Position numbers and translations under genes: made by a program
The notes under the pieces: model-generated
Told to the model about the DNA's origin: nothing
The model's input: only the letters and a program-made list of their open reading frames with translations
Database searches by the model: none
Source: a virus
Lineage: Duplodnaviria > Caudoviricetes
DNA length: 60,385 nucleotides
Virus record (IMG/VR): IMGVR_UViG_3300036859_000207
Span: 1 to 60,385 of that record
Direction: 5' to 3' (one strand)
Shown here: positions 1,595-60,385 of the stretch, in pieces
How the letters are laid out: each line of letters opens with the position of its first letter
How positions within the stretch are numbered: position 1 is the stretch's first letter

Positions 1595-1607
1595 AATCAA
1601 TAGGTTA
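1595..1607 (+). promoter_or_regulatory. IHF-binding site in attP
   Basis: aatcaataggtta matches WATCAANNNNTTR next to the att core. Confidence 0.65.
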
Positions 1608-1714
1608 TGATGAAGTTATGCCTAGCTCAATGGGGTCGTTTGACCCGGTTAGGCAGAAAATAGACCCCGAAAGGGCTGCCGTTGCAACTCAAGAGCGGCA
1701 GCGCTGAACGCCGT

Positions 1715-1741
1715 CTTGCAGCACCGCATTGGTGCTGCAAG
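1715..1741. terminator. Perfect 11-bp hairpin between convergent int and left array
   Basis: cttgcagcacc-gcatt-ggtgctgcaag; a second hairpin lies at about 1674-1702; no clear U-tract. Confidence 0.45.
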
Positions 1742-1793
1742 CGGTTCACCCATTCAGGTGTCCACCAGCACTCTGGCCATCTGCAACTCGCCT

Positions 1794-1826
1794 GGGTCAC
1801 AGGTTCGATCCCTGTACCGCCCACCA
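1794..1826 (+). other. Second tRNA 3' fragment (tRNA-Val-like), possible second or relic att core
   Basis: gggtcacaggttcgatccctgtaccgcccacca has T-arm (acagg-TTCGATC-cctgt), acceptor strand and CCA; no 5' half. Confidence 0.75.
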
Positions 1827-1833
1827 CGCTCCT

Positions 1834-2052
1834 CTATTCTGGTTTGCAGGGCACGCGCGGTACCCGATCTGGCCGGCCCTCTCGATCTTCGCGACTCAGC
1901 TCGACGTAGGCGGCCTCGGCGTATGGGCCGGCAATCTGCGCCAGTGCGGCGGTCGCCTGTACATCTGACAAGCGATGTGTTGATTTCCACGCGCCGACCA
2001 TCTGCCGTAGTTCGGCGATGACCTCCGCGTATGGCCGGTTGATGGGCTTCAT
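1834..2052 (-). CDS. Hypothetical protein (left array)
   Basis: SD gaggagg; ATG at 2052; stop fused to GAGGAG. Confidence 0.65.
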   Translation of the reverse strand: MKPINRPYAEVIAELRQMVGAWKSTHRLSDVQATAALAQIAGPYAEAAYVELSREDREGRPDRVPRVPCKPE

Positions 2053-2063
2053 TGCCTGCCTCC

Positions 2064-2288
2064 TCATGTTCTGTTGGGGGTCTTCTGCAAATCGGCCGCA
2101 ACCGTCGCCACAACGGTCGGCATGATCTGCCGCTTCAGCTCGGCCGTGAATGCTTGGCCTGCAGCCAGCGCGTCGTCCCAATTCTTGAACGGCCCGATGC
2201 GGTTCACGCACTCACCATCGACAAAGACATGGATGTCGGACCCGTGAGGGTGGATCCCGATCTCTGCGTTTACCGTCAGCATCGACAT
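2064..2288 (-). CDS. Hypothetical protein (left array)
   Basis: SD ggagg; C-terminus DLQKTPNRT is encoded by the junction repeat. Confidence 0.65.
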   Translation of the reverse strand: MSMLTVNAEIGIHPHGSDIHVFVDGECVNRIGPFKNWDDALAAGQAFTAELKRQIMPTVVATVAADLQKTPNRT

Positions 2289-2290
2289 GG

Positions 2291-2488
2291 CTACAGCGCC
2301 CTCCGAAACATCTGGCTCAGCATCTCGTGGAGAATGCGAGCCTCCATCTGAGTGATGATGTTCTCCGAGGTCGACTTCGGCCCCACAATCTTTATGGTCG
2401 CGCGCCCGACAGCCATCATGGTTCCGGGTGTGCGGGTTACGCTCATGGAAATCTTGTTGTCCAGCTCGTTGACAAACTCCCGCTGCAT
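2291..2488 (-). CDS. Hypothetical protein (left array)
   Basis: SD taggagg; tightly packed. Confidence 0.6.
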   Translation of the reverse strand: MQREFVNELDNKISMSVTRTPGTMMAVGRATIKIVGPKSTSENIITQMEARILHEMLSQMFRRAL

Positions 2489-2497
2489 CCCAGCCTC

Positions 2498-2698
2498 CTA
2501 TCGTTCTGTCGATTTGCGCAAATCTTCCACCGAAGCCATGTCCCGCAAGTGGTCCTCGATGAGTGCTGCTATCCTGCGGTAGCCAGTCATCCAGTGCTGG
2601 AACGCGACGCCGCCAACCGCATACGGGCACGCGGTCTCCACCTCGCCGAGCTCGGCGGCTCGTTCGCCCATCTTCTGCCACTTGATGACCGAGCCCAC
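2498..2698 (-). CDS. Rmf/CrpP-fold-like small protein (left array)
   Basis: GTG with SD gggagg; ACPY...HWMTGY pattern resembles ribosome modulation factor. Confidence 0.5.
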   Translation of the reverse strand: MGSVIKWQKMGERAAELGEVETACPYAVGGVAFQHWMTGYRRIAALIEDHLRDMASVEDLRKSTER

Positions 2699-2708
2699 GC
2701 GCACCTCC

Positions 2709-2864
2709 CTATCGGAATTGACCGTCGCAGAGATAGCGATGCGCAGCAGCCATCTTGAAAGCGTACCGCCATCGCATCGGTCCTGCGCCATGCCGCTTGC
2801 GGCGAACGATCCACAGCGCTCGCGCCCACATCTTCCAGCCGTAGAGCCATCGCCAGGCGTGCAC
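2709..2864 (-). CDS. Small Trp/Arg-rich hypothetical protein (left array; below ORF-track cutoff)
   Basis: GTG with SD gaggag; 51 aa; fills the gap exactly. Confidence 0.5.
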   Translation of the reverse strand: MHAWRWLYGWKMWARALWIVRRKRHGAGPMRWRYAFKMAAAHRYLCDGQFR

Positions 2865-2874
2865 GTGCTGCTCC

Positions 2875-3060
2875 TCAATTTCTCTCGCGAATGCGGCGCC
2901 TAAGCCGTCGCGCGGCCTCTGTCTTCTCGACGATCAGATCGCCAATATCTGCGTGCGGCTGGTTGGCCTCAGCGATCCGCAGCGCCTCTAACTGCGCCAA
3001 CGTCGCCTCAAGCTCCGCCGCGAGTTTCGCCTTCTTCTGCAACCTCACAGAGGTACGCAT
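2875..3060 (-). CDS. Hypothetical coiled-coil protein (left array)
   Basis: SD aggag; helical composition. Confidence 0.6.
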   Translation of the reverse strand: MRTSVRLQKKAKLAAELEATLAQLEALRIAEANQPHADIGDLIVEKTEAARRLRRRIRERN

Positions 3061-3076
3061 CGTCTCTCCTATCTTA

Positions 3077-3280
3077 TCAGGGGTCGCCAGCGAACACGTC
3101 GTTGGCGCCAGCTTCGATTTCATCTCCATCGCGCTCAGTCATCTCGTTGCGAAGACGCTCAAGGAGAGCATGCGTTGTGTTTGGAACGGGCGTCGGGAAC
3201 TTGGCTTCCACATACTCGCCCCAGCTTACAAGCTGGCGCACTTCGTCATCACTTAGCTCGAACATCGCGTCGCTCCTCAT
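3077..3280 (-). CDS. Hypothetical protein (left array)
   Basis: ORF track; SD present. Confidence 0.6.
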   Translation of the reverse strand: MRSDAMFELSDDEVRQLVSWGEYVEAKFPTPVPNTTHALLERLRNEMTERDGDEIEAGANDVFAGDP

Positions 3281-3462
3281 TTCCGCACTTCGATGACGCG
3301 CGTTGATTGACCGTCAAGCATCGCCCGCTTGCGCTCCGCATCGGCCGACAATCGGTCCACGAAGCACGTGGCGTAGCTCTGACTTTTCATCCACCCAGCG
3401 ACACGATGCCACCAGCGCTGCGGATATCGGTCGTCTTCCGGCCACTCAATCACGAAGGGCAT
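3277..3462 (-). CDS. Hypothetical protein (left array)
   Basis: SD ggaggag before ATG at 3462. Confidence 0.6.
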   Translation of the reverse strand: MPFVIEWPEDDRYPQRWWHRVAGWMKSQSYATCFVDRLSADAERKRAMLDGQSTRVIEVRK

Positions 3463-3641
3463 CTGGTTCTCCTCCGCCGCCAGCCTGCCACGCCGTACAT
3501 ACACATCACGAAGAACCACCAGTTTGCTCTCCACCGATGACCACATGTCCAAGTTGGTTGCAGCCGGCGGCATTCTCGGTTGTGCCAAATGACTGCGAGG
3601 ATCGCCCTGGGCAGCCGCAACAGGCTCAGACGTGGTCGCAA
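3450..3641 (-). CDS. Hypothetical protein (left array)
   Basis: TTG start with SD aaggag; fills gap. Confidence 0.4.
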   Translation of the reverse strand: MRPRLSLLRLPRAILAVIWHNRECRRLQPTWTCGHRWRANWWFFVMCMYGVAGWRRRRTRCPS

Positions 3642-3656
3642 CTCAATGCTCCTTTG

Positions 3657-3845
3657 CTACCTGTCTACGAAATACTCTTCGATCTGATAGTCGGTCGAGG
3701 AGATGCAATCGAACTTTCGACGCTTGGTTTCCTCGAAGTCTCGTTCGGTTGCAGCGTGCGCTTTTTCTCGGGTCGAGAACACGCCGATCATTCGCGGATC
3801 GCGCAGAGTTTCTTTGCCAAAGGTGACAACGAATACCGTCTTCAC
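3657..3845 (-). CDS. Small phage protein, VFVV...IGVFSTREKA family
   Basis: Common small phage-protein motif; SD taggag. Confidence 0.7.
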   Translation of the reverse strand: MKTVFVVTFGKETLRDPRMIGVFSTREKAHAATERDFEETKRRKFDCISSTDYQIEEYFVDR

Positions 3846-3854
3846 GTCGCGCTC

Positions 3855-4082
3855 CTATCTTGACAGCCCAAGCGCGCGCTTCAACCCCGCGAGGGTTTGG
3901 CCACCGCTTCGCTCGAAGTCCTGCAATGCACGTCGCGCGGCCGCTCGATCCTGCTCAGCTCGTCGTTCGGCAACCGCAGCCGCCGCCTCCGCATTGAGGC
4001 ATTCACGGCAGAACAAGTAGCCGTGCCTGTCGCATGTCCACTTGCCAGGGCCGATGCCAGCGTGGTGTGTGCCGTATCTCAT
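3855..4082 (-). CDS. Hypothetical zinc-finger-like protein (left array)
   Basis: CxxH...CxxC; SD gaggagg. Confidence 0.6.
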   Translation of the reverse strand: MRYGTHHAGIGPGKWTCDRHGYLFCRECLNAEAAAAVAERRAEQDRAAARRALQDFERSGGQTLAGLKRALGLSR

Positions 4083-4093
4083 TCGTGCCTCCT

Positions 4094-4318
4094 CTATTCC
4101 GGGTGCCTTGCAAATCTTCCGTCCATGAACTCGCCAATCGGGCGAACCCATACGCGCCCATCGCCATGCGCTTTGTAGACGACAACTGTTGCCAGCGTCG
4201 CCTCGATCTCAGCCACGGCGATCACGTCGTAATAGCCGCCCGTCTTCCGGTGTCGGAACGTATCTCCCATCGACACTTGGCTCAGCGGCTCACCCGTTTC
4301 CACGACTGTCACGTTCAA
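4094..4318 (-). CDS. DUF1653-like SH3-fold protein
   Basis: FRHRKTGGYYDVI...VVVYK...VWVRPIGEFMDGRF signature. Confidence 0.8.
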   Translation of the reverse strand: MNVTVVETGEPLSQVSMGDTFRHRKTGGYYDVIAVAEIEATLATVVVYKAHGDGRVWVRPIGEFMDGRFARHPE

Positions 4319-4323
4319 TGCTC

Positions 4324-4530
4324 CTAAACTTCTGTTGGGGTCTTCTGCAAATCTCGCAGGGTGCGCAAGTCCAGAGGTTTCACGCCAAGCCTGTAGCAGT
4401 CGCCAGCGTGCCAGTAGAGTGCCGGTTCGCGATCCATGGTGTAAACGACACGCTGACCCCGCTCGATGGACTTCCCGCAGTGGTCACACACCTCGCCGCA
4501 GTTCTTGAATGGCGTCACCAACTTCAACAT
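4324..4530 (-). CDS. Hypothetical zinc-binding protein (left array)
   Basis: CDHCGKSI...WHAGDC; C-terminus DLQKTPTEV comes from the junction repeat. Confidence 0.65.
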   Translation of the reverse strand: MLKLVTPFKNCGEVCDHCGKSIERGQRVVYTMDREPALYWHAGDCYRLGVKPLDLRTLRDLQKTPTEV

Positions 4531-4534
4531 CGCT

Positions 4535-4621
4535 TTATCCCTTCGTGGGCAAGATGCAGTCCAGCACAAGGCCGATAGCGAAGAACGCCCACATGAGGCC
4601 GACGATCTCTGCCCACGGCAT
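4535..4621 (-). CDS. 28-aa single-TM peptide (left array)
   Basis: SD taggagg; MPWAEIVGLMWAFFAIGLVLDCILPTKG. Confidence 0.45.
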   Translation of the reverse strand: MPWAEIVGLMWAFFAIGLVLDCILPTKG

Positions 4622-4630
4622 ATGTGCCTC

Positions 4631-4807
4631 CTATTCTGCTGACGGTTTTTGCAAACCCCACAACACTGCGGCTTTGATCAGACCACCCATGCCGCTCAAG
4701 ATCATTCCTGCAGCAACCCACCAGTTGGGCGCAGCTCCGAGCAGCGCAAAAACGCCAGCAGCGCAGCACCAATTTGCGCACAGCAGCAGGTGAACTCGCT
4801 CGCTCAT
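4631..4807 (-). CDS. Small membrane protein (left array)
   Basis: Two hydrophobic segments; SD gaggagg; ends GLQKPSAE (junction repeat). Confidence 0.6.
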   Translation of the reverse strand: MSERVHLLLCANWCCAAGVFALLGAAPNWWVAAGMILSGMGGLIKAAVLWGLQKPSAE

Positions 4808-5019
4808 GCTGCGCCTCCTCATGTGTTGCTGGCTGAGAACCGATCTTCCCAGCGCTTCGCGTCTTCGGGGTACGCCCACCGCATATCCTCAATCATGCGC
4901 CAGAAGCGTTCCTTATCTTCAGTCTTGTCGTCGCGCATCGCGTACATGTGACGGCGCAACAGATCGCCGTAGACGTACGCGGCTGGCTTCCACGGCTCCT
5001 CCAGGACACGGCCCTCCGA

Positions 5020-5247
5020 TTATTTGATCAGTCCCATTTGCTTGAACTGCTCGCGGCGAGCGAAGTTCTGCAGTTCGCCGCGCGTCACCCACCCGTGGAT
5101 TTTACCGCACCGGATGCATTTGCCGCCGATGCCTTCCGGCATGTCGTGGACGCGGCAGGCGAGACACCGGCCGAAGCGACAGCACATTCGTCCGAGCCAC
5201 TCGCTGAAGGTTTCCAAAATTGTCTCTCCTGCTCTTTCGTGCGACAT
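5020..5247 (-). CDS. Cys-rich hypothetical protein (left array)
   Basis: C...H...CIRCG pattern. Confidence 0.55.
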   Translation of the reverse strand: MSHERAGETILETFSEWLGRMCCRFGRCLACRVHDMPEGIGGKCIRCGKIHGWVTRGELQNFARREQFKQMGLIK

Positions 5248-5296
5248 GCCCCGCAGTAGGGGATCGGCGTTCCGTGTCTACACTTCACAGGCCCTC

Positions 5297-5515
5297 CTAT
5301 CTTGTTGCTTTCTCACGGCGCCAAACCGCGACCGTGACCCAGATTGCGACTGATGCCGTTCCGATAATCATGCTCGCCGCCCCGACGTAGTGTATGAGCG
5401 TTGCCGGCACGTCGATCGGGTCAACCAGGAACCAAAACGCGGCACCGACCACGACGAGAAACAAGCCAGACAATCCGACGCGGATCGGTCCTATCTGTTC
5501 GCTGAAGGGCTCCAT
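5297..5515 (-). CDS. Small two-TM membrane protein (left array)
   Basis: SD taggag; two hydrophobic helices. Confidence 0.65.
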   Translation of the reverse strand: MEPFSEQIGPIRVGLSGLFLVVVGAAFWFLVDPIDVPATLIHYVGAASMIIGTASVAIWVTVAVWRREKATR

Positions 5516-5522
5516 GATGCTC

Positions 5523-5891
5523 CTATGCTGTCGAGACTGGCGCGCAGCCGATGTGGTAGCGCTGGCCCATCGTCGTGATGTGTGCGTCGTGCGGGATTGA
5601 CGTGTAACACGTCGGGCACTGCTTCTCCGGAAACACCTTGAGCGAGCGTTCGATGATGGGGTTGACACATTCGTCTTCCACGTCGACCGCGTCGATGCCG
5701 TTTAGGATGTCACCGAGCTGACTAAGCAAGCACGCCGTGCGCTCGCCAACCTGATCTTCCAGTCCCTCCATGCCAGCGCGGTCCTGGAAGAGGCGCGCAT
5801 AGTCGGAGTGAACCTTCGCAATCACATCGGCCATGTGCGCGATGGCGCGGCACTGGTCGGCGACCTGCTGGCGCTTCGTCTGGGTGTCCAT
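5523..5891 (-). CDS. Hypothetical protein with C-terminal CxxC...HxxC
   Basis: SD aggag; first gene downstream of the recombinase. Confidence 0.7.
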   Translation of the reverse strand: MDTQTKRQQVADQCRAIAHMADVIAKVHSDYARLFQDRAGMEGLEDQVGERTACLLSQLGDILNGIDAVDVEDECVNPIIERSLKVFPEKQCPTCYTSIPHDAHITTMGQRYHIGCAPVSTA

Positions 5892-5905
5892 GTCTTGCTC
5901 CTGTC

Positions 5906-6520
5906 TTACCGTTTGCGCCTAGCCTTGGCGCGCTTCAGATAGTTGTTCACTGACGCGGGACTTATGTCGAATTTGAGCGCCAGCGACGACACCGTTGCGC
6001 CTCGCTTGCGCATCCGCACGAGGGTTGCCGCTTGGCGCGCGGTGAGTTTCGGCTGCGCTCCGTACATGAAACCGGCATCCTGTAGAGCCTTGATGCCAGC
6101 CGACGTGCGCTCTGACGTGCGGTCCACTTCGAGCTGCGCTAGTAGCGCCGTAAGCCCCATGGTGAAGCGACCGATCGGCGTCTTTACTTCCAAATGCGGC
6201 TCTGTGATCGAGCGAATTATGCAGCCGGACTTCTCGACCCGCTCGAGAAGCTTGTAGGCGTCGGAGGTGTTGCGCACGAGCCGGTCGAATTTCCATACCA
6301 GCAGCACATCGCCTGGGCGCAGGTCTATCAGCGCAAGCTCTAGCTGCGGCCGCTTGTGCCGCGTCGCGCTGCGCTTCTCCTGATAGATGTTCCAGCAACC
6401 GGCTTTCTCCAATGCCGCGACTTGCATTCGTAGGTCTTGGTCGTCGGTGCTGACCCTCGCGTAGCCGATCAGCTTGCCGGTCTCCTGCTTCTTCTGCACG
6501 CCAACCCCAGCGGTTTCCAC
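5906..6520 (-). CDS. Small serine recombinase (resolvase/invertase family)
   Basis: GYARVST catalytic motif, LRPGDVLLVWKFDRLVR, ERTSAG and C-terminal HTH. Confidence 0.95.
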   Translation of the reverse strand: METAGVGVQKKQETGKLIGYARVSTDDQDLRMQVAALEKAGCWNIYQEKRSATRHKRPQLELALIDLRPGDVLLVWKFDRLVRNTSDAYKLLERVEKSGCIIRSITEPHLEVKTPIGRFTMGLTALLAQLEVDRTSERTSAGIKALQDAGFMYGAQPKLTARQAATLVRMRKRGATVSSLALKFDISPASVNNYLKRAKARRKR

Positions 6521-6550
6521 AGCTCAACATCACATTTAGCGCAAATCCCC

Positions 6551-6581
6551 TTGACTGTCTAGTAGGCGTACGCTAGTTATA
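6551..6581 (+). promoter_or_regulatory. Sigma70-type promoter driving the right array
   Basis: TTGACT-N17-TAGTTA(T) in a GCTAG context, 26 nt upstream of ATG 6607. Confidence 0.65.
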
Positions 6582-6606
6582 CACCATCAGGCACGGGAGA
6601 GACGTA

Positions 6607-6846
6607 ATGGACCGCTTCAACGTCGCAGATCATGAGACCTTCGTACTTGTGACTGAGAAGACCATTCCGGGGCGCAGCTTTTTCTCATGCTTCGGCGCGA
6701 AAAAGGCGAGCTGGGGCTATCGCGGCTGCGGCGTGTTCAGCGTTCCGAGCGGCGAGCGCGAGGCTAACGTCAAGGCTCTGCTCACCGGCAAGTTTCATCG
6801 CTATCGCGTGTTTGATAACGACACCGGCCGCGAACTCACGATCTGA
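6607..6846 (+). CDS. Hypothetical protein (right array 1)
   Basis: SD gggag; ends TGAGGCC. Confidence 0.7.
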   Translation: MDRFNVADHETFVLVTEKTIPGRSFFSCFGAKKASWGYRGCGVFSVPSGEREANVKALLTGKFHRYRVFDNDTGRELTI

Positions 6847-6856
6847 GGCCGGCCAG

Positions 6857-16168: not shown

Positions 16169-18697
16169 CTACTGAAGCCGGGGCTGGTTTTCTACTGGCT
16201 GCTCTTCATCGCCGCTTGGCTTGATCCCATTTTCGGCGGCGATGGCGCGATAGACGGGGAGTAGGGCTTGGTCTCTCTTGGCGAGCTCGCCCAGGCGGTT
16301 GATGTGCGTTAGGATGCGCGGCGCCGTCACATTGATGGGCGCCCGTAAAGCGGCTGCACGCAGTTGCGCGTAGGTGGTCATCCAGCGCGTATAGGCGGGG
16401 CGCGACAGCAGGATCGAGGCTGCAAGTCCCGTGCCCGCGACCCCAAGCGGGAGCATGAAGTTACCACTGGCGATTGAGCCGGCCGATCCTACTAACGCGG
16501 TCAGGTTCATCGTGTTGGTGCCGCTGCGCGAGCGGTTGGTTTGCTTCTCGACATTGGCGAGTCGAGACACCACGCGAGCGAAATCGTCTGTTGCAGATGC
16601 TTGCTCGCCACCGAACAGAAGACGCCGGGCAGCAGGGTTCATCTCCTGCCATCGCCGCATGGCGCTCTCTGGCGAGAAGCCAAGCTCCTGCACAATGCCA
16701 CCTGCTGACGGTTGCGGTTTGCCAAGCTCTCGGAACACCAGCGCCGAAAGCTGGTTGCGTTCCTCCGGCCGGAGGACGGCAACCGCCGTCCGCAACATCT
16801 GCATGTTGCCTTTGGTGCCGTCGAGCGCCGCGCGGATAAGGAGTCCCGCCGCCTGTTGCGGGTTTTCCGTGCCGACGACCTTGGAGAAGCGGTCCATTCG
16901 CTCCATACCCATGCGCGTGTAGCGATCGGCGCGACGTAGGGCATACAAAGCGCCTTCAGCCTTGCGCGCCATATCCAAGCTGACCGCATCAGCCCGGTTG
17001 TTGCCGAGCTGAGATTGATTGCGAGCACGATTGGCAAGATCCATAACGCCAATCTCTATGTCGCGCGAGATGGCACCATAGAGTTGCTTAAGCTGCGTGC
17101 GGTCAAGGCGCACATCATAGATGCCGAAGTTGGACAGTGCGCGGCCAATCTCCGTCCGCATGCTCTTCATGGTTGGCAGCGTTACGTTCGTTTTTACCCG
17201 ATCCGCCATACCAGCAAAACGGCCGCCCACAATGCCGCCGGATATCCCAGCCTTCGCTTCAGCCGCAGCCATGGCTTGAAACGCATTCTTTGTGTTCGTC
17301 GCCGCCATCAAATCTGGGTTGGCCGCATTGTTTATCTTCATCTTAGCTGGAATCTGCTGCCACGCATGCTCAAATAGAGCCTCTTGACGGGCGGCGAATG
17401 AAGTCTCCGAACTTGGTGCTCGAATAATCTGCGCCAGCTCGGCGTGGCTCATGTCTTCAGCGGAGCGGCGGGCCAACATAACCTGATCAAGCGGGCGCGC
17501 AGCCGCTACTGGAACACCCCTTGATGTTGCGGCGCTAGCGACATCGCCAATCGCTTGGCGGGCTTGCTGCGCTTGGCTCGCTCGCTCTACGGCACCTGCA
17601 GACATTGTGGAACCGCCACGAGCCGCCCGCTCGTATACAGCCAGCCGCCCAGCGTCATTCATAATAACGTGCTTGGATGGGTCGAGATATTCCAGAGTTC
17701 CGTCTGACTTCACGATGGCTTGCCGTCTTGCTGACAGCGGCGCCGATCCAGGGAGGGGCGACACAAGCTCTCCGACATACCGCCCTGGCGCAAACGGCTG
17801 CACCCCAAGATCTGAGAGCGCGCCAGGCTCAAGACCACGAATCCCAGACGTGCGATAGCGATCAAGGCCACGCTGTAGCGCAGCACCTGTTTGCTCCACG
17901 CTGGCGGCCGGCGCCATGGCGTCCGCAATCCGTCCCTGCGCGGACACCACGTCACGCATGGACTCCTCTAGGGCATTGCGGACGGGGGCGCCGATGATGG
18001 GTGTTTCAGCCAGTTGCTTGGCGACTGAAGCGACAGGACCCTGGTTGAACGCTGGGCCGAACTTGCGCACATCGATATTTTCGAAGGCGCGCGCGTCCTG
18101 GACAGCATTGGCGGCGCGCTCCGTTGCCAGTGCTGCTCCCGTCCGTGTTCCGACTGTGCCCGCCGTCTGTGCGCCTTGTAGCGTTCTCTGAATGCCCGTC
18201 ACAGGCCCAACAGCCAAACCTGGCACGATCTCACGCGCAACGCGCGTCATTGCGCCTTCGTTGGTCTGCGCCTCAGCCTCTCTGCCGGCCGCCGCTGTGT
18301 GCCGCGCAAAGACCGCCTCGCGCCCCGTCTCTGGGTCGTTGGCAAGGAAATCGGTCTGCGGATTGATGCGCAGAAGCTCGCCGTTCGGTCCCTTATAGGC
18401 AGGGCCGAAATCGTATTCCTCGACATCACCCAGCTTCTGTGGTTTGGCGGGCGCATATTGCGAGAACGCATGCGGCGAGACGCCTTGGCGCGCCAAATTA
18501 CGCCCCTCCAGTTCTCCCTGCAGCATGGCCTTGCTGGCGTCCCCGAAGCCCATCGCCGCTGGCTTTGGCGGCTGGTAGTCTTCCCATGGACCACCAGCCG
18601 GCGCGGCGTCGGACATCGGCACGATCTGTGCCTTGGCCAGCGGCATCTGCGCTGGCGCCGCTGGCGCCTGCTGATAGTCCTCCCAAGGCCCCGTCAC
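16169..18697 (-). CDS. Large DNA ejection protein (gp16-like position)
   Basis: PWEDYQ twice at N-terminus; 842 aa helical; C-terminal hydrophobic segment. Confidence 0.7.
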   Translation of the reverse strand: MTGPWEDYQQAPAAPAQMPLAKAQIVPMSDAAPAGGPWEDYQPPKPAAMGFGDASKAMLQGELEGRNLARQGVSPHAFSQYAPAKPQKLGDVEEYDFGPAYKGPNGELLRINPQTDFLANDPETGREAVFARHTAAAGREAEAQTNEGAMTRVAREIVPGLAVGPVTGIQRTLQGAQTAGTVGTRTGAALATERAANAVQDARAFENIDVRKFGPAFNQGPVASVAKQLAETPIIGAPVRNALEESMRDVVSAQGRIADAMAPAASVEQTGAALQRGLDRYRTSGIRGLEPGALSDLGVQPFAPGRYVGELVSPLPGSAPLSARRQAIVKSDGTLEYLDPSKHVIMNDAGRLAVYERAARGGSTMSAGAVERASQAQQARQAIGDVASAATSRGVPVAAARPLDQVMLARRSAEDMSHAELAQIIRAPSSETSFAARQEALFEHAWQQIPAKMKINNAANPDLMAATNTKNAFQAMAAAEAKAGISGGIVGGRFAGMADRVKTNVTLPTMKSMRTEIGRALSNFGIYDVRLDRTQLKQLYGAISRDIEIGVMDLANRARNQSQLGNNRADAVSLDMARKAEGALYALRRADRYTRMGMERMDRFSKVVGTENPQQAAGLLIRAALDGTKGNMQMLRTAVAVLRPEERNQLSALVFRELGKPQPSAGGIVQELGFSPESAMRRWQEMNPAARRLLFGGEQASATDDFARVVSRLANVEKQTNRSRSGTNTMNLTALVGSAGSIASGNFMLPLGVAGTGLAASILLSRPAYTRWMTTYAQLRAAALRAPINVTAPRILTHINRLGELAKRDQALLPVYRAIAAENGIKPSGDEEQPVENQPRLQ

Positions 18698-46353: not shown

Positions 46354-46968
46354 CTATCGCCCATTGGTGGGTTCCTTTCTCATCTCAATTCGCCTTTCGA
46401 GATCGTGACGGCGTTTCAGCATGTCGCCTCCGATCTTTTCGAGCGCAGCCGACACCCGCGCATCGCCATGGCCGCGAACACAAAGAGCGTAGGCGGCGTC
46501 AAAATCCTTCGCAGCCTGCTTGCAGCCTTCAATTTCCTTGCCTTGCTGTGGTAGCCGCGAATTCTTTCTGGCAAAGCTCCACAGGGCGCCGACCCAGCCC
46601 TCTTTCGCGGCTTGCTTGCCGAGCGGCGTCACCATCAGGTCGTTGGCGAGCTTCAAGCGCTCGGTGGTCCAGTCACGGTTGACGCCGCTGTCGTGCTCAA
46701 CCGACAGCGTTTCCGACTGCCGTTGAGCTTCGATCCAGCGCTTGGCATCCAGGCAAGCGTCGATGCATTCGGACACCAGCGGCGTTTGCGGTTTCTTGCG
46801 CGTGCGCACCATCTCGCGACCGGCGCGCTCGACGACATCGTCAGGGAACCCACTCAGCTCGCGGACCATGGTTTCCGCCCACGCGGCTTCCTTGTCATCA
46901 TCCCAACGGAACGGCGGGAAGTGCTGTAGAACCCTGTCGGCGAATGCGATCACCACCTTTTTGCTCAT
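46354..46968 (-). CDS. Replication accessory protein (helicase-loader-like position)
   Basis: ATGA-coupled downstream of initiator; ELSGFP.DVV.RA...P.VSEC pattern. Confidence 0.55.
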   Translation of the reverse strand: MSKKVVIAFADRVLQHFPPFRWDDDKEAAWAETMVRELSGFPDDVVERAGREMVRTRKKPQTPLVSECIDACLDAKRWIEAQRQSETLSVEHDSGVNRDWTTERLKLANDLMVTPLGKQAAKEGWVGALWSFARKNSRLPQQGKEIEGCKQAAKDFDAAYALCVRGHGDARVSAALEKIGGDMLKRRHDLERRIEMRKEPTNGR

Positions 46969-47891
46969 GAGCGGCCACCTTTCTCGGCGGCTTCTTCCAC
47001 ATGGCGAAGAAGGCGGGCAGCCCGGCTCTCCTTGGGCTTGCCGGACGATCTTGCCGCCTCGAGCCGAACGTCATGCACTTGGCCTTCGTTGAAATCGCTC
47101 ATCATGGCCCGCTTGACGGTGGCCATGGGGCTTGCCGGCTTCTTGCCGTTGATTGCCCAATCGCGAGCGCAAATTTCCGCGATGGCTCGCGCACGATCCT
47201 TGGTCATGCCGATCATGCCGGCGGCAAGGTCAATGGCGGCGTAATCTATTTTGAAGCCGGGACCATAAATCGCGATGCCGTTAAGTTGTACCTGCCCGTC
47301 TTCATTCGGTTGCTCGCTCTTAGAGAGAGAAGAGATAGATATAGACTCTCTCTCTCTATAGAGGAGAGGCGTTGTGGCAGGCTGGCTGGCCACAATCGGA
47401 GAAACGACAGGATTTGCGGCAGGCTGGCCGGCCATAACGCCGGTTGTGGCAGCGAGGCTGGCCACAACGCTTGCGGCAACGCGGCTGGCCACAAGCTCCG
47501 TTGTGGCAGCCTCGTCGGCCACAAGATTTGCGGCAGCGTGGCTGGTCACAACGTCTCTTGTGGCAGCCGCGGGGATACGTGAGCCTGCCACAACGGCAGT
47601 TGCAAGCGCATCCTCAATGCAGCCTTGGAGCTCGAAAAGCGCCTTCGCCCGGCCGCGGCCGAAGGTATGTTTTACGAACACCTCCAGTTCGGCTAGGTGA
47701 TCCTTTATCGCCGGTCGCGACCATCCGGTAATCCGCTCGAGATCACGGACAGAGAGGTTGAGTTGGTTCTTACCCTCAGCGACGAGGAAGATCACCATCG
47801 CGAGGTGCTGACCGATGCGGGTGACTTCGCCGGAGTAGAGCACCCGGCGGATGAATTCCTCGCGCGTCAATAGGTTGGCTGAAGAGGTCAT
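46965..47891 (-). CDS. Replication initiator (lambda O-like organisation)
   Basis: N-terminal wHTH (LSVRDLERITGWSRPAIKDHL); central DNA repeats. Confidence 0.75.
   Translation of the reverse strand: MTSSANLLTREEFIRRVLYSGEVTRIGQHLAMVIFLVAEGKNQLNLSVRDLERITGWSRPAIKDHLAELEVFVKHTFGRGRAKALFELQGCIEDALATAVVAGSRIPAAATRDVVTSHAAANLVADEAATTELVASRVAASVVASLAATTGVMAGQPAANPVVSPIVASQPATTPLLYRERESISISSLSKSEQPNEDGQVQLNGIAIYGPGFKIDYAAIDLAAGMIGMTKDRARAIAEICARDWAINGKKPASPMATVKRAMMSDFNEGQVHDVRLEAARSSGKPKESRAARLLRHVEEAAEKGGRS
47321..47593. repeat. Putative replication origin: palindromic iterons plus AG/AT-rich tract
   Basis: About seven TTG(T/C)GGCAG...GGCCACAA-like units next to agagagaga...ctctctctct at 47322-47357. 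Confidence 0.75.
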
Positions 47892-50818: not shown

Positions 50819-51415
50819 ATGTCGAGGGACATCGGTAAAAAGATTGCTGAGTTGCGCAAGCTCCTTGGGGACACCCAGGAGATATTTGGCGAGCGCCTTG
50901 GTGTGGAACAAGCAACAGTCAGCCGCTGGGAGAAGGGTGAGCCGCCTCAGCGCCGGTACGAGAAGCCCATTGCGGACCTTGCTCATATGACGGTCGCGGA
51001 GTTCTTTCACTCGGCCGAAAAGCCGAGATTGATCCCAATTATCGGGGATCTGTCGGACAGAGGGGTTGCCCTGAGACCGACCAAATCGGGTGGCGCCATA
51101 GGCCATATCACATTGAGTTTAGGGGAAAATGACCAGATCGCTCTGACGGTCGTCGGGAACGCGCTGGCTCCCGCCTATCGCCACGGTGACACGATCATCG
51201 CCGGCAAACTCATCAAGGCGAAGATGGCCAAGGCGGTGGGCCGGGACTGCATTGTTTTGAGTACCTCTGGCGATGCCTACATCAAGAACGTGCGCAAGGG
51301 CAGCCGCAAGGGCGCGTACAACCTTCGCGATGTCGGACTAACCTCCAGCGACGATCTTGAAGACGTCGAGCTCCAATGGGCGGCGCCCATCATCTGGATC
51401 GGACGCGCGCAGTAG
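50819..51415 (+). CDS. cI: CI-like repressor (XRE HTH plus S24-like domain)
   Basis: TQEIFGERLGVEQATVSRWEKG; VVGNALAPAYRHGD...YIK. Confidence 0.9.
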   Translation: MSRDIGKKIAELRKLLGDTQEIFGERLGVEQATVSRWEKGEPPQRRYEKPIADLAHMTVAEFFHSAEKPRLIPIIGDLSDRGVALRPTKSGGAIGHITLSLGENDQIALTVVGNALAPAYRHGDTIIAGKLIKAKMAKAVGRDCIVLSTSGDAYIKNVRKGSRKGAYNLRDVGLTSSDDLEDVELQWAAPIIWIGRAQ

Positions 51416-51489
51416 GCGTCTGCCGCGCCGGGTCTCCCCAGCCAAGAATTGCATTTTTGTCACAGCCAAGCGCCACCTTGTCGCGCACG

Positions 51490-51540
51490 AATACATTTTC
51501 TGTATTTTGCAGTTGACCAATCATACAAAAACTGTATGTT
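51490..51540 (+). promoter_or_regulatory. OL-like operators and PL promoter
   Basis: AATACA-N5-TGTATT at 51490-51506; CATACA-N5-TGTATG at 51522-51538; TTGACC-N16-TATGTT. Confidence 0.75.
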
Positions 51541-51667
51541 CCATCCTGTCACTGAGTGGCACCCGACTCGCACCGCAACCGCGAGAGCCTGCTTCCCCCA
51601 GGCGCCTTACGCTCCGTTAGGCAGGGAGCGCCGCTCAGTGACCCCGAATTGCGATGGAGGCGGTCAG

Positions 51668-52444
51668 ATGCACATTGCCATTGATCTTGAGCGTTTCGAG
51701 AAACTGCCGCCACTTCGGCACGGCAGTCATACTCCGAACGACACCGATATGTGCGTGATGGAGGCCGTTGCCTATGTCACGCACAAGGACTGGTCCGACC
51801 ATCCTCCATGCGTGTGTCCCGTCATCGGCGCCTTCATGCGAGCCTGGAACGATGGCCTGCCGGACGACGAAAGCCGCACGCGACTGCTCAAGCCGCTCAT
51901 CCCGAAGTTGATCAACACGCGTGGCTCGAATGCACTTGAGCAACGCCGCGCCACTATGGCGGCTGACTGGTTGGTGCGTGAGCACACCGTTGCGTGGCTG
52001 CGATTGGCCAAGTTAGACACGGCGGCTGATGCACTTGCGGCGCTGCCGGAGATTACCGACTTCGCCCAATGCCCACCACTCATGCCCGCGCTTGAGGCGG
52101 CACGCAAAGATGCGGCTGCCGCCTGGGATGCCGCCAGGGCTGCCGCCAGGGCTGCCGCCTGGGATGCCGCCTGGGCTGCCGCCAGGGCTGCCGCCTGGGA
52201 TGCCGCCAGGGCTGCCGCCATGGATGCCGCCTGGGATGCCGCCTGGGCTGCCGCCAGGGCTGCCGCCATGGATGCCGCCTGGGATGCCGCCTGGGCTGCC
52301 GCCAGGGCTGCCGCCATGGATGCCGCCATGGATGCCGCCATGGATGCCGCCTGTGCTGCGCTCGCACCTACGGCGCTTGCTCTTCAACAGTCCGCACTTG
52401 CCCTTGTCGAGCGGATGATCGCTCTCAAAGACGGCGAGGCATGA
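51668..52444 (+). CDS. Phage protein with Ala-rich tetrapeptide repeats
   Basis: SD ggagg; CVMEAVAY...SDHP.CV.PVI N-domain; AAAW/DAAR repeats. Confidence 0.8.
52115..52354 (+). repeat. 20 x 12-nt tandem repeat G(C/A)TGCCGCC(TGG/AGG/ATG)
   Basis: Directly visible. Confidence 0.95.
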
Positions 52445-52752: not shown

Positions 52753-53249
52753 GCGGCGGCAGAGGTGGTGATCTCAAGCGCGCCCTTAAACTTTGGGTGC
52801 AGGTCGATCCGTACGTGGGGCTTCTGAAAATCGGGCGCGAGTGCGGTATGGCAACCAAGCGTATCAGGGGGGCAGCCAAGGCGCGTGATCTGCCGCGACC
52901 GCCAAGGCCGATCCTAAGTGTTCGAGGGCGACGGCGGAAGGGGTTGGAGCCGCCGAAGCCGCGCAAGCTTCCTAATCATGAGGTCGCCAAGCGTGCCGCC
53001 GCCGCTGTGCGCAAGCGCAAACTCGATGAGCGACGCGCGCGTCTGCTGCACCTGTGGGGACTGGGTCTCGATCTGAAGACTATTGGCCGGCGCATTGGCA
53101 TTTCTGGATCCCATGCCAAGAAGCAGCTTGCCAGCTATGGCGTAGATACCAGCGGAGCAAGGTATCGCATACCGCCAACCGGGGCCGGTGTAGTCGCGCC
53201 GAACAGCGGCACACGGGGTCTTGCAACAAGCATGTGGAGGCGAACGTGA
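52749..53249 (+). CDS. Basic double-HTH protein
   Basis: LLKIGRECGM; LKTIGRRIGISGSH. Confidence 0.6.
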   Translation: MSGGRGGDLKRALKLWVQVDPYVGLLKIGRECGMATKRIRGAAKARDLPRPPRPILSVRGRRRKGLEPPKPRKLPNHEVAKRAAAAVRKRKLDERRARLLHLWGLGLDLKTIGRRIGISGSHAKKQLASYGVDTSGARYRIPPTGAGVVAPNSGTRGLATSMWRRT

Positions 53250-55079: not shown

Positions 55080-55302
55080 AGTCATCGCCATCGACGACAT
55101 TCGCATCCGCCGCGCCGCCAGGCCGAAGCTGAAGGCCGACCTTGAGGCTTCCGTGGACCTTGAGAGCAAGAAGCGGATCGAGCGAACCCGCGCGGCACTC
55201 CTCGACGCTCTCAAAGACTTAGTCCTGCTAGAGGGCGGCGAGACCGCAGTTGAGTGGACAGAGAAGGCGCTCGATCAGTTGAAGATGGGGATGCAGCCAT
55301 GA
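55072..55302 (+). CDS. Hypothetical protein
   Basis: SD gagg; coupled. Confidence 0.6.
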   Translation: MAKVIAIDDIRIRRAARPKLKADLEASVDLESKKRIERTRAALLDALKDLVLLEGGETAVEWTEKALDQLKMGMQP

Positions 55303-56732
55303 GCTTGTTCAAACCGGCAGAGAACACGATGGCCTACTTCAAGGCCGGCCTGATGGGCGAAGCCGGAAGCGGCAAGACGCACACGGCAACGCTGGTAGCG
55401 ATCGGCCTCGTTCAGCACCTCAAGAAGCTTGGCATTAGCGGGCACGACCGGCCAGCGATGTTGCTCGATACCGAGAACGGATCGAGCTGGATCAAGCCGA
55501 TGTTCGATGAGGTTGGCATTCCGCTGCTCGTCGCTAAGACGCGCGCCTTTCGTGATCTGGTGCCGGCGCTGCGCGAGGCTGAGAAGGGCGCCAGCGTTTT
55601 GATCGTGGATAGTGTGACCCATTTCTGGGAGGAACTTCAGGCGTCCTACCTGGCTCGCTTGTCCGAGCGCAAGGGGCGGGCGATCACGCGTCTTGAGTTC
55701 CAAGATTGGAACTACATCAAGGGCACGTGGCGGAAGTTCTCCGATGCCTTCGTGACCAGCAACCTGCATTGCATTCTGTGCGGGCGGCTTGGCTGGGAAT
55801 ACGAGACCGTCGAGGAAGACGGCAAGAAGCAGATCGAAAAATCCGGCGCCAAGATGCAGGCCGAGAAGGGCCTGGGCTATGAGCCCAACATCCTCGTTTG
55901 GATGGAGCGCAACATGGACCTGCACACAAAGGTCGTGGCGCGCACAGCCACCGTGCTCAAGGATCGCTCGCGCCGGCTGGACGGCAAGCAGTTCCCGGAC
56001 CCAACGTTCGCAACATTCCTTCCTCACATAGACTTCATGGCGCTCGGCGGAAAGCACGAGGCCGCCGACACGACTCGCAACAGCGAAGACATCATGCCTG
56101 ACGACGATGCGCCGATGTCGGATATCAAATCGATCCGCCGCACCATCGTCGTCGAGGAAGTCCAGGCGCTGATGGTGAAACACTACCCCAGCCGCAGCGC
56201 AGAAGACGTGAAGGCCAAGAACGGCTTGCTGCTGGAATTCTTCAAGACGGCGAGCTGGACCGAGGTTGAAAAGCTCATGCCGCTGACGCATCTGCAATCC
56301 AACTACGATGCGCTGCACCGCAAGCTGGAGGGCAAGCCGTCGCGATACGACGTGGCCGCTCCGTCAACCGAGCCAGTCGACGAAATTCCGTTCACGGAAC
56401 CCGCAAAGGAGGCGACGCCGCAGATCAATGCTAGACCGCCCGCGCCAGATGAACCACTCGACAAAGAAGCGGCAGCAGCTGCGCTAGCGGGCTTCTCGGC
56501 CGCCATGACGAGCGCCCACACACAGAACAAGATCACTCGCGTCTGGAACAAGTGGGCGACCGTCATCGAGCAGTGTGACAAGCTCGCCCAGTCTGAATTC
56601 CTGCTGGTGAAGGCAGGCGCAATGAAGCGTGTGAAGGACGATGGCGAGGCTCGATTGCAAGAGGACGCAAAGCGCGCGACGGCGGCCGGATACAACGTTG
56701 GCCCCGCGCTCGCCGAAGCGGCAGCGGAGTGA
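55299..56732 (+). CDS. AAA_24/Sak4-like ATPase (single-strand annealing recombinase)
   Basis: Walker A GEAGSGKT; LLDTENGS; IVDSVTHFW; GYEP. Confidence 0.85.
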   Translation: MSLFKPAENTMAYFKAGLMGEAGSGKTHTATLVAIGLVQHLKKLGISGHDRPAMLLDTENGSSWIKPMFDEVGIPLLVAKTRAFRDLVPALREAEKGASVLIVDSVTHFWEELQASYLARLSERKGRAITRLEFQDWNYIKGTWRKFSDAFVTSNLHCILCGRLGWEYETVEEDGKKQIEKSGAKMQAEKGLGYEPNILVWMERNMDLHTKVVARTATVLKDRSRRLDGKQFPDPTFATFLPHIDFMALGGKHEAADTTRNSEDIMPDDDAPMSDIKSIRRTIVVEEVQALMVKHYPSRSAEDVKAKNGLLLEFFKTASWTEVEKLMPLTHLQSNYDALHRKLEGKPSRYDVAAPSTEPVDEIPFTEPAKEATPQINARPPAPDEPLDKEAAAAALAGFSAAMTSAHTQNKITRVWNKWATVIEQCDKLAQSEFLLVKAGAMKRVKDDGEARLQEDAKRATAAGYNVGPALAEAAAE

Positions 56733-60057: not shown

Positions 60058-60385
60058 GTGGACACGAACGATAACGACCTGATCCTCGCCCGGATGCGAG
60101 GCGTCCCGGCTCAAACAACGACGCAGCTGGAGGCGATGATGGACCAAACGAACCCGCAGAAGCTTGAAGCGAATGACAACAAAGGACAATGGGTAACGCG
60201 CCGCGCCCCGCACATGGAGCGCTACGTCACCATTGCCCCAGTCGTGATCGAGGATTGGCCGGACGCTCATCATGTCTTCCTGCAAGTCACCAATCAGCGC
60301 TTCTGCGTGACGCCACACGGGTGCGAGACGAAGGAGGAAGCCGAGTGGACGCGCGACATGCTGTGCATCGCGCTTGACCAAGTGG
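60058..60385 (+). CDS. Hypothetical protein spanning the circular join (ends at 134)
   Basis: GTG with SD ggag; open through 60385 and 112-134. Confidence 0.65.
   Translation, partial: MDTNDNDLILARMRGVPAQTTTQLEAMMDQTNPQKLEANDNKGQWVTRRAPHMERYVTIAPVVIEDWPDAHHVFLQVTNQRFCVTPHGCETKEEAEWTRDMLCIALDQV
60275..60385 (+). repeat. Terminal direct repeat of 1-111 (circular assembly overlap)
   Basis: Identical to bases 1-111; ORF from 60058 continues in frame through the join to TAA at 132-134. Confidence 0.97.

Follow-up and report, generated by a model that had tools for sequence, protein, structure and literature searches.

The stretch of DNA analysed here, referred to below as the window, is the whole of IMG/VR record IMGVR_UViG_3300036859_000207, a complete virus record (Duplodnaviria; Caudoviricetes) of 60,385 bases with a G+C content of 0.605. 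Close to its left end lies an array of 19 small, co-directional open reading frames (ORFs), G1 to G19, headed by the serine recombinase gene SR (Table 1). The SR protein matches the Pfam family Resolvase (2.4e-34) and phrog_125, DNA invertase (6.8e-55), which places it in the DNA-invertase family. Among G1–G19, only G8 passes the Pfam cut-off (DUF1653), G10 falls narrowly under its own (DUF7336; 24.9 bits against a cut-off of 25), and in a PHROGs scan of 10 array proteins G8 alone was matched. Two elements of the array are considered in this report: a short box at the gene junctions, in which a stop codon is fused to the Shine-Dalgarno (SD) sequence of the following gene, and a longer repeat that forms the last codons of both G7 and G18. 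A sequence-only reading of the window had suggested that this repeat might be a recombination site appended to captured ORFs. We read the array, with moderate confidence, as a hyperplastic cassette-like operon, whose boxes serve translation and also act as the crossover points of modular exchange.

A stop codon fused to GGAG is present at 13 of the 20 array gene ends, compared with 3 of 53 elsewhere in the phage (Fisher p = 3.5e-7), the comparison set of 53 gene ends having been listed by hand from long ORFs. TAG is the stop codon at 11/20 array gene ends versus 11/53 elsewhere. The box reads roughly A-R-A, followed by TAG or TGA and then GGAG, with the stop overlapping the SD of the next gene; the base after GGAG is G or C, after which the sequence varies. 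Each box ends one ORF and stands 4–11 bases before the next start codon. The 10-mer AAGATAGGAG, found behind G13, also occurs after G2 and G9, and all three occurrences are in the array. About 13 such junctions had been counted in the sequence-only reading, which further proposed that the junction supplies the stop together with the ribosome-binding site of the next gene; the count is confirmed, with the fused spelling specific to the array, and the arrangement is supported. The box would couple the translation of the adjoining genes.

Table 1. Features of the array and its surroundings (p values are from the scoring of gene tails described in the text; shared blocks are those found in L041)
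Feature	Positions	Strand	Remarks
Left array, 19 co-directional small ORFs G1–G19 (28–122 aa)	1834-5891	minus	gaps of about 10 bases
Serine recombinase SR, 204 aa, heads the array	5906-6520	minus	resolvase N-terminal domain and C-terminal helix-turn-helix
Long repeat copy 1, last codons of G7 (Zn-ribbon-like), DLQKTPTE	4330-4353	minus	
Long repeat copy 2, last codons of G18, DLQKTPNR	2069-2093	minus	one extra C in the C-run
Diverged copy in G5 tail	4634-4656	minus	p = 0.0002; 17/24 bases match (base-by-base reading)
Marginal copy in G16 tail	2504-2524	minus	p = 0.038; contains exact 14-base palindrome 2511-2524
Apparent copy in G8 tail, other reading frame	4097-4116	minus	p = 0.011
SR stop codon and SD	5898-5908	minus	L041 identity ends at 5898; first cassette differs thereafter
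Box TAGGAG after G1	5520-5525	minus	same box and spacer CATC precede G2 in L041, there after G16
Box after G2, end of shared block	5294-5299	minus	
Last 7 bases of G4 and TGAGGAGG, start of shared G5 block	4814-4828	minus	
Box after G5	4627-4633	minus	shared block ends at 4628
Box AAGATAGGAG after G13	3066-3075	minus	1 base after the real stop of G13 (TGA, then TAA)
Box after G16	2494-2500	minus	shared block ends at 2495
Orphan stop-SD TAGAGGAG after last cassette G19	1829-1836	minus	abuts tRNA 3'-end-like fragment
Shared block, SR, divergent intergenic region and 79-aa gene	5898-6850	minus	100% over 953 bases (blastn); also in L042
Shared block, G2	5294-5526		97.1% (blastn)
Shared block, G5	4628-4828		98.5% (blastn)
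Shared block, G12–G16	2495-3474	minus	99.1% (blastn)
tRNA-3'-end-like fragment between array and hairpin	1795-1832		
Terminator-like hairpin and T-run downstream of array	1664-1676	minus	

The proposed function of the box in exchange is best seen in a mosaic relative. A search of IMG/VR with the SR protein led to two further records, L041 (93,968 bases) and L042 (a 6.2-kb contig), in both of which SR is 100% identical. L041 has four blocks in common with the window (Table 1), and its array runs in the order SR, R1–R3, G5, R4–R8, G12–G16, G2, where R1–R3 and R4–R8 are genes foreign to the window and G2, which occupies position 2 in the window array, stands last. Behind SR, G5, G16 and G2, the two arrays are identical up to the final G of the stop-SD box and no further, and the G2 block starts directly after the same box, which gives five joints at the box in total. 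The spacer and the start codon move with the downstream gene, as CATC-ATG for G2 and CGCAGC-ATG for G5. Fused gene ends are equally a property of the L041 array (11/16). Moreover, the last cassette in each array keeps an orphan stop-SD without a gene behind it: this is G19 in the window and G2 in L041, where the TAGGAG is kept, no start codon follows and the next gene is convergent. That the array genes behave as exchangeable cassettes, in line with the captured ORFs of the sequence-only reading, is supported by the five joints and by these terminal orphan boxes.

Elsewhere the two records have little in common. No match of the terminase large subunit was found between the window and the L041 record, and the other DNA matches consist of three stretches of 52–196 bases (72–89% identity) and 61 bases to a tRNA-like fragment beside the integrase. 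A tblastx comparison of the 20.6-kb locus yielded, outside the four blocks, nothing but short matches at about 20–43% identity. Judged by these comparisons, the two records are unrelated outside the shared blocks.

Logan contigs of three soil runs were also compared with positions 1600-6700 of the window. One run holds a 7.7-kb contig with 0 differences to the window and is probably its source; its contigs contain no joints in the array. Two runs of other studies, X2 and X3, cover only the blocks 5898-6700, 5294-5512, 4628-4828 and 2495-3463, with 778 and 1522 foreign bases between shared blocks and with G2 relocated behind G16. The array parts that have no cover in X2 and X3 (G1, G3–G4, G6–G11 and G17–G19) are uninformative by themselves. 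No other useful relatives were obtained by comparing the G18 and G7 proteins with viral contigs, by aligning G7 with genome and metagenome contigs or G18 with metagenome contigs, or by blastn of the array against isolated phages, and exact 30-mers of the G5 and G16 tails were found in no IMG/VR phage beyond this relative. The array DNA gave no match in 5 candidate host genomes and only weak matches of 33–107 bases in 401 genomes of the order of the candidate host. Relatives of the phage integrase are 30–41% identical; the nearest two (41% and 36%) lack the motifs beside the integrase, and the ORFs of the nearest one contain no comparable array.

In addition to the box, two junctions of the window carry the long repeat. 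A 17-mer is identical at 2077-2093 and 4337-4353 (minus strand), and beyond a run of C that differs in length (C5 against C4) a further 7 bases agree, so that 24 of 24 bases are identical with one indel, as the sequence-only reading had noticed. The C-terminal peptides quoted there, DLQKTPNRT in G18, DLQKTPTEV in G7, GLQKPSAE in G5 and DLRKSTER in G16, likewise agree with the translations, and the palindrome reported in the G16 tail is exact. The G7 and G18 proteins have nothing in common beyond DLQKTP. The extra C shifts the frame, so that the final shared bases encode NRT in G18 but TEV in G7; because identity crosses this frame shift, it lies in the DNA and not in the peptide. Both copies are equidistant from the stop codon, belong to one operon and bracket the 2.26-kb block G8–G18 as a direct repeat; base by base, no dyad symmetry is apparent in either. 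From base composition, 0.22 exact 17-mer pairs and about 2e-5 exact 24-mer pairs are expected in the genome. When up to 3 mismatches were allowed, the 17-mer was found three times, versus 0.16 in shuffled sequence, the third match (3 mismatches, 52816-52832) being antisense to a plus-strand gene. A trans-acting antisense partner was considered and rejected, as the genome has no complementary copy. In IMG/VR as a whole, the exact 17-mer is present in 5 unrelated contigs, in chance contexts.

The homologues of the two genes point to different histories for the two copies. The sole homologue found for G18, P0002 (79% identical), keeps DLQ, then diverges and ends in DLQNSTVK; at least the start of the repeat is, on this alignment, native to the G18 family. 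The G7 homologues P0004 and P0157 end in DLPLRKSTP, and since homology of G7 to its homologues (P0004, P0156 and P0157) ceases at 4366, 42 bases before the G7 stop, G7 looks like the recipient of the shared tail. P0156, a metagenome copy and ENA member of the G7-homologue cluster, reads through the stop and SD region into the next gene to form a 118-aa fusion, whose downstream protein has no counterpart in the window.

Four degenerate copies of the repeat had also been claimed. To assess them, the final 36 bases of every gene were scored for similarity to the long copies, and 5000 random 36-mers provided the null distribution. The copy in G5 is upheld, those in G8 and G16 are marginal, and the one in G19 (1837-1848; p = 0.63) is not above background; the remaining 14 tails gave p >= 0.11. 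The bases in question at the end of G8 encode the DGRF end of DUF1653, of which D66, R68 and F69 are invariant and G67 is conserved in >=90% of 41 aligned sequences, namely G8 and 40 hand-picked, mostly shorter proteins from the first 70 of 150 listed (1607 having E <= 0.001). On this alignment the G8 'copy' is native coding sequence and not an appended element. A homologue search with G16 returned only its own cluster. In G8, where DGRF is native, and in G18, where DLQ is kept, the homologues speak against a foreign tail, whereas in G7 they would be compatible with one. In L041, where other genes follow them, the G5 and G16 tails are identical and remain attached to their own genes. The idea that the repeat is a recombination site appended to captured ORFs finds no support: these tails, the native G8 end and the DLQ of the G18 homologue speak against it, as does the lack of an integron-type integrase, of attC-like structure and of dyad symmetry in the long copies.

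What the tails do share is a looser motif. In a non-redundant set made of the window array and the L041-specific parts, TTTGC and CAGAA are the most tail-enriched of the 1024 possible 5-mers. TTTGC has 7 occurrences in the last 36 bases of genes versus 1 in gene bodies (p = 3e-6), two of the seven being those of G7 and G18, which are perhaps one event. CAGAA occurs 9 times in tails versus 6 in gene bodies (p = 2e-5). TTTGC is read in three frames (G7, G18, G16 and G5; G8 and R7; R3), and this, together with the G7/G18 identity across the frame shift, puts the signal in nucleic acid and not in the peptide. The composite pattern of TTTGC, 8–22 bases and TAGGAG gives 3 + 3 matches in the two records, all in the arrays, and none in the reversed control. 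In general form, the tail family consists of TTTGC, 8–20 bases, CAGAA or CAACA, and the stop. The unrelated L041 genes R1 and R4 have 15/16 tail bases in common. The TTTGC part is present at only about 5/19 window junctions, at 15 to 25 bases from the stop. All copies of the motif are direct repeats on the coding strand, and GATTTGC is absent from the other strand of the array, save for the G16 palindrome at 2511, which is the same on both strands. By our own reading, only the tails of G16 (exact), G5 and R3 are palindrome-like, and no strong inverted repeats were found around SR.

Taken together, the array would consist of densely packed, co-transcribed small accessory genes of a temperate alphaproteobacterial phage, in which the box couples the translation of neighbouring genes. 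Whole genes are gained, lost and re-ordered among related phages by crossovers in the box, as the comparison with L041 shows. Nearly the same box recurs at every junction, in several cases with a longer tail, so that genes which are otherwise unrelated have homology to one another at their junctions only. As the one sequence common to all cassettes, and the only place in which a crossover spares both genes and the ribosome site, the box would be the point at which exchange occurs or is tolerated. Extra homology would come from the longer tail family, with the 24-base repeat as the longer boundary homology of cassettes G7 and G18. This repeat would most likely go back to a single recombination or gene-conversion event between tails of the family, in which the G18 lineage was the donor and after which the C-run slipped, and the identical C-terminal peptides would then be a by-product of junction DNA. 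As agent, general or phage-encoded homologous or microhomology recombination is envisaged, in combination with selection for intact junctions and without a dedicated site-specific system; such recombination would suffice for the exchange, and the phage encodes a Sak4-like annealing protein. Since at least four or five junction events lie between the two arrays at a block identity of 97–100%, turnover is fast relative to point mutation.

Several observations weigh against this interpretation. The stop of identity at the box is partly identity by state, as every junction has the box, and the true crossover may be displaced from it by a few bases in either direction; the same picture would result if illegitimate recombination occurred at random and selection acted on its products. 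The comparison involves a single independent relative, for L041, L042, X2 and X3 are apparently one phage lineage. The G7/G18 repeat is not covered by any relative found, and a crossover there has not been seen. Furthermore, 24 identical bases between unrelated flanks call for a double crossover, a gene conversion or selection acting on the sequence, and there may be selection for a binding site in the repeat. The enrichment of TTTGC and CAGAA in tails, too, is unexplained by recombination alone if the tails are unconstrained.

In an alternative that we regard as doubtful, the tail motif and the box constitute a selected cis-regulatory element of mRNA or DNA, similar to the start-associated sequences (SAS) and extended SAS (ESAS) of Cluster K mycobacteriophages or to the L5 stoperators, and recombination is secondary. 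A phage or host factor would bind the element, which would thereby set the translation or transcription of the downstream gene. Such an element would fit a motif that has one orientation, is restricted to the array and is tail-enriched in all three frames, as well as the retention of the box after G13, where the TAG does not serve as the stop. It is favoured, too, by a near-copy of the G16 palindrome at 6534-6547, with 3 mismatches, which lies in the divergent intergenic region on the promoter side of SR and is conserved in L041. SAS and ESAS are placed alike and likewise unexplained (PMC3203893). However, the scarcity and variable spacing of TTTGC at the junctions are unexpected for such an element, and nine folded junctions have no common RNA fold (z-scores of -1.6 to +1.0). 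The G16 palindrome, at <=3 mismatches, occurs 6 times in the genome, once of these upstream of SR, versus 3.7 expected in shuffles, which is not above chance and led to its rejection as a genome-wide operator. The tail, moreover, follows the upstream gene while the downstream gene changes, which argues against a leader specific to the downstream gene. It is improbable that the shared tail is instead a functional C-terminal peptide of the type D-[LW]-[QR]-K-[ST], such as a degradation or partner-binding tag, selected independently in each protein. Six tails are indeed in the same frame (G7 DLQK, G18 DLQK, G16 DLRK, G5 GLQK, R1 DWRK and R4 DWRI), the homologues end in DLQNSTVK and DLPLRKSTP, and the changes in G5 and G16 relative to G7 keep Q or K; yet these bases also occur in the other two reading frames (G8/R7; R3), the G7/G18 identity persists past the frame shift, and the tails belong to no Pfam or PHROG family. 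That chance and the ordinary constraints on ribosome-binding sites produced everything, with nothing shared by descent, is extremely improbable. An exact 17-mer repeat is not rare in a 60-kb genome, this one recurs in the five unrelated IMG/VR contigs, the G19 copy does not exceed background, and that of G8 belongs to the native coding sequence. Against this stand the 2e-5 expectation for identity at 24/24 bases, the equal distance of both long copies from the stop within one operon, and the outcome of the k-mer and composite-pattern tests. A general drop in G+C 40–21 bases before start codons is also absent, and an A/U-rich enhancer before all start codons was rejected on that account. Chance is thus very unlikely for the two long copies and possible only for the weakest ones.

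An integron-like mobile platform is quite improbable as well. In this scheme, SR would cut and rejoin DNA at the box or the tail, promoterless mini-genes would be captured, re-ordered and passed between unrelated phages, and each cassette would supply a ribosome site to the gene that comes to lie after it. The long copies would be the products, left and right, of the insertion of the 2.26-kb element between them. It can draw on the perfect identity of the SR block over 953 bases in two otherwise unrelated phages, on array content that diverges from the first junction after SR, on the different place of G2 in the two arrays, on block identity ending at one fixed position of the box (partly identity by state), and on terminal cassettes that retain an orphan box. 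SR, however, is a small serine recombinase and not an IntI-type tyrosine recombinase, and its nearest homologues in isolated phages are Hin/Gin-type invertases that are only about 40% identical. Enzymes of the invertase family usually recombine sites in inverted orientation with the help of an enhancer, whereas the copies here are all direct repeats with no inverted partner in the array except the G16 palindrome. The long copies lack dyad symmetry, the boxes comprise 6–10 bases, the short gaps between genes leave no room for an attC-like element, and no conserved hairpin is found. Recombination of a general kind at the boxes remains the reading that we prefer.

Comparison with known systems helps to place the array. 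Integrons hold gene cassettes with attC sites, which are imperfect palindromes of tens of bases, and an IntI tyrosine integrase. The array resembles them in its co-directional promoterless small genes beside a recombinase, its turnover of content and its junction element after each ORF. It differs in that the adjacent enzyme is of the serine type with a Resolvase domain, the tyrosine integrase (410-1501) lying beyond the array, and in that neither an attC, an attC-like palindrome nor a folded-strand signal is present and the junctions of 6–10 bases overlap the stop. Inverted crossover sites flanking invertible segments, as in invertase switches and shufflons, were not found in the array. In translationally coupled operons, the SD lies at or in the end of the upstream gene; the array is alike in that the stop adjoins or overlaps the next ribosome site and intergenic distances are minimal, and unlike in that the fused spelling is specific to it within this phage and is kept after terminal genes.

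Three further systems come from phages. In those of the T4 type, small genes are exchanged through recombination at repeated cassettes of promoter and terminator, termed PeSL for promoter-early stem-loop (PMC2839356). Their hyperplastic regions likewise have small regulatory repeats between non-essential small genes and modular shuffling among close relatives. A PeSL, however, is a unit of promoter and terminator, whereas the unit of the array is translational (stop, SD and coding tail), and no sigma-70-like promoter with a terminator stem-loop was found between the array genes. For each of integron, PeSL and invertase switch a defining feature is missing from the array, and all three were rejected as its class. 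The SAS of Cluster K mycobacteriophages is a 13-base sequence that contains AGGAG, often has the TAG of the upstream gene and is restricted to non-structural genes, and the extended SAS lies just upstream of it, inside the end of the preceding gene (PMC3203893). The array has an asymmetric AGGAG-containing repeat 3–8 bases before starts, in one orientation, often with an upstream TAG and in the non-structural part of the genome, and it has a second conserved element in the end of the preceding gene. On the other hand, SAS is a well-conserved 13-mer whose flanks do not pair with rRNA and ESAS is made of paired 17-bp inverted repeats, whereas conservation in the array beyond the stop and SD is weaker (roughly A-R-A) and most tails are not symmetric; neither strong conservation at positions that do not pair with 16S rRNA nor 17-bp inverted repeats were found there. 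The portions of the paper considered here do not describe SAS as crossover points (PMC3203893).

A precedent exists for boundary sequences. In mycobacteriophage Island3, the orphan gp68 shares 18 C-terminal residues, and the DNA for them, with the upstream gp67, which Pope et al. (2011) attribute to recombination between gene-end sequences of about 50 bp and call 'fundamentally similar' to proposed short conserved boundary sequences, citing proposals made for lambdoid phages (PMC3029335). As in Island3 and the Cluster I mycobacteriophages, unrelated neighbour genes of the array share their last codons in DNA, insertions or deletions of genes are bordered by the shared stretch, mosaic joints lie at gene ends and general recombination is the proposed agent. 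Unlike in Island3, the core in the array is only the 6–10-base stop-SD box, at 13/20 junctions, with a 24-base version at two junctions instead of about 50 bp, the host is alphaproteobacterial, and an SR-headed array is common to two otherwise unrelated phages. Sequence shared by unrelated genes at module junctions is thus present in the form of both the box and the 24-base repeat, and mosaic breakpoints at shared sequence are seen for the box only, in the five joints with L041. To judge from these features, the junctions of the array behave as boundary or linker sequences do.

The surroundings of the array are those of a tailed phage. The window codes for terminase large subunit, portal, head-closure and tail proteins, an endolysin, an HNH endonuclease, a Lar-like protein, a CI-like repressor (50819-51415) and a Sak4-like annealing protein (55254-56732), and the tyrosine integrase matches the general phage integrase family only. 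Adjoining the integrase is a tRNA-Thr-like 3' fragment, whose exact 48-base stretch is present in 15 genome contigs, all of them metagenome-assembled genomes of Alphaproteobacteria (Hyphomicrobiaceae, Rhodospirillaceae and others); this fragment suggests an alphaproteobacterial host group. An exact 111-base direct repeat occupies both termini of the record (1-111 = 60275-60385), so that the assembly is probably a closed circle of 60,274 bases. Between the array and the tyrosine integrase lie two tRNA 3'-end-like fragments that differ from each other: the one at 1540-1594 contains the 48-base stretch, and the one at 1795-1832 is matched by many soil-metagenome contigs, which diverge on either side of it. 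Such a pair of att-like cores within a single phage may be the trace of an earlier exchange of the integration module. ARAGORN found no whole tRNA genes, and Rfam gave no match at gathering thresholds. No promoter-like sites were found on either strand of the array, and other than the hairpin behind it, terminator-like matches are limited to two within G2 (5438-5479) and one on the opposite strand (2904-2916), none of them at a gene junction. No RNA run is among the sequencing runs listed for the array.

Some further observations concern individual genes. G16 (2498-2698) reaches 27.5 bits with the Pfam family RMF, whose cut-off is 27.9, and may be a phage-borne RMF-like protein. The G3 region (5020-5288) contains two overlapping frames, 5288-5085 and 5247-5020, and the frame of G4 (4819-5009) is open 5' of the first listed start codon, where the good SD belongs to another frame; uncertain start codons, a frameshift or very short ORFs may lie behind these oddities. 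In the right part of the window, about 29 tandem 12-base units at 52066-52413 form a long run of peptide repeats inside ORF 51449-52444, and 4–5 iteron-like repeats with internal inverted repeats at 47365-47567, inside ORF 46965-47891, are possibly a replication origin within an initiator gene. In L041, about 3.6 kb past the array end, an ORF at 17972-18697 (minus strand) has a signal-peptide-like start and, from its sequence, looks like an outer-membrane beta-barrel protein; the L041 array, too, may lie near a prophage end.

The array is a clear new example of an already known process of gene shuffling in phages, and it offers a base-resolved and unusually clean view of how accessory mini-genes are shuffled between them. 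It lends support to the long-standing linker model, by which phages evolve in modules, for soil phages of Alphaproteobacteria, a group in which this model has received hardly any attention so far. For annotation, it is a warning that small proteins without any relationship can end in the same C-terminal peptide as a mere consequence of junction DNA. Should SR prove to drive the exchange, the array would represent a new cassette system. More generally, a translational signal can double as a point of homology, or of viability, for recombination.

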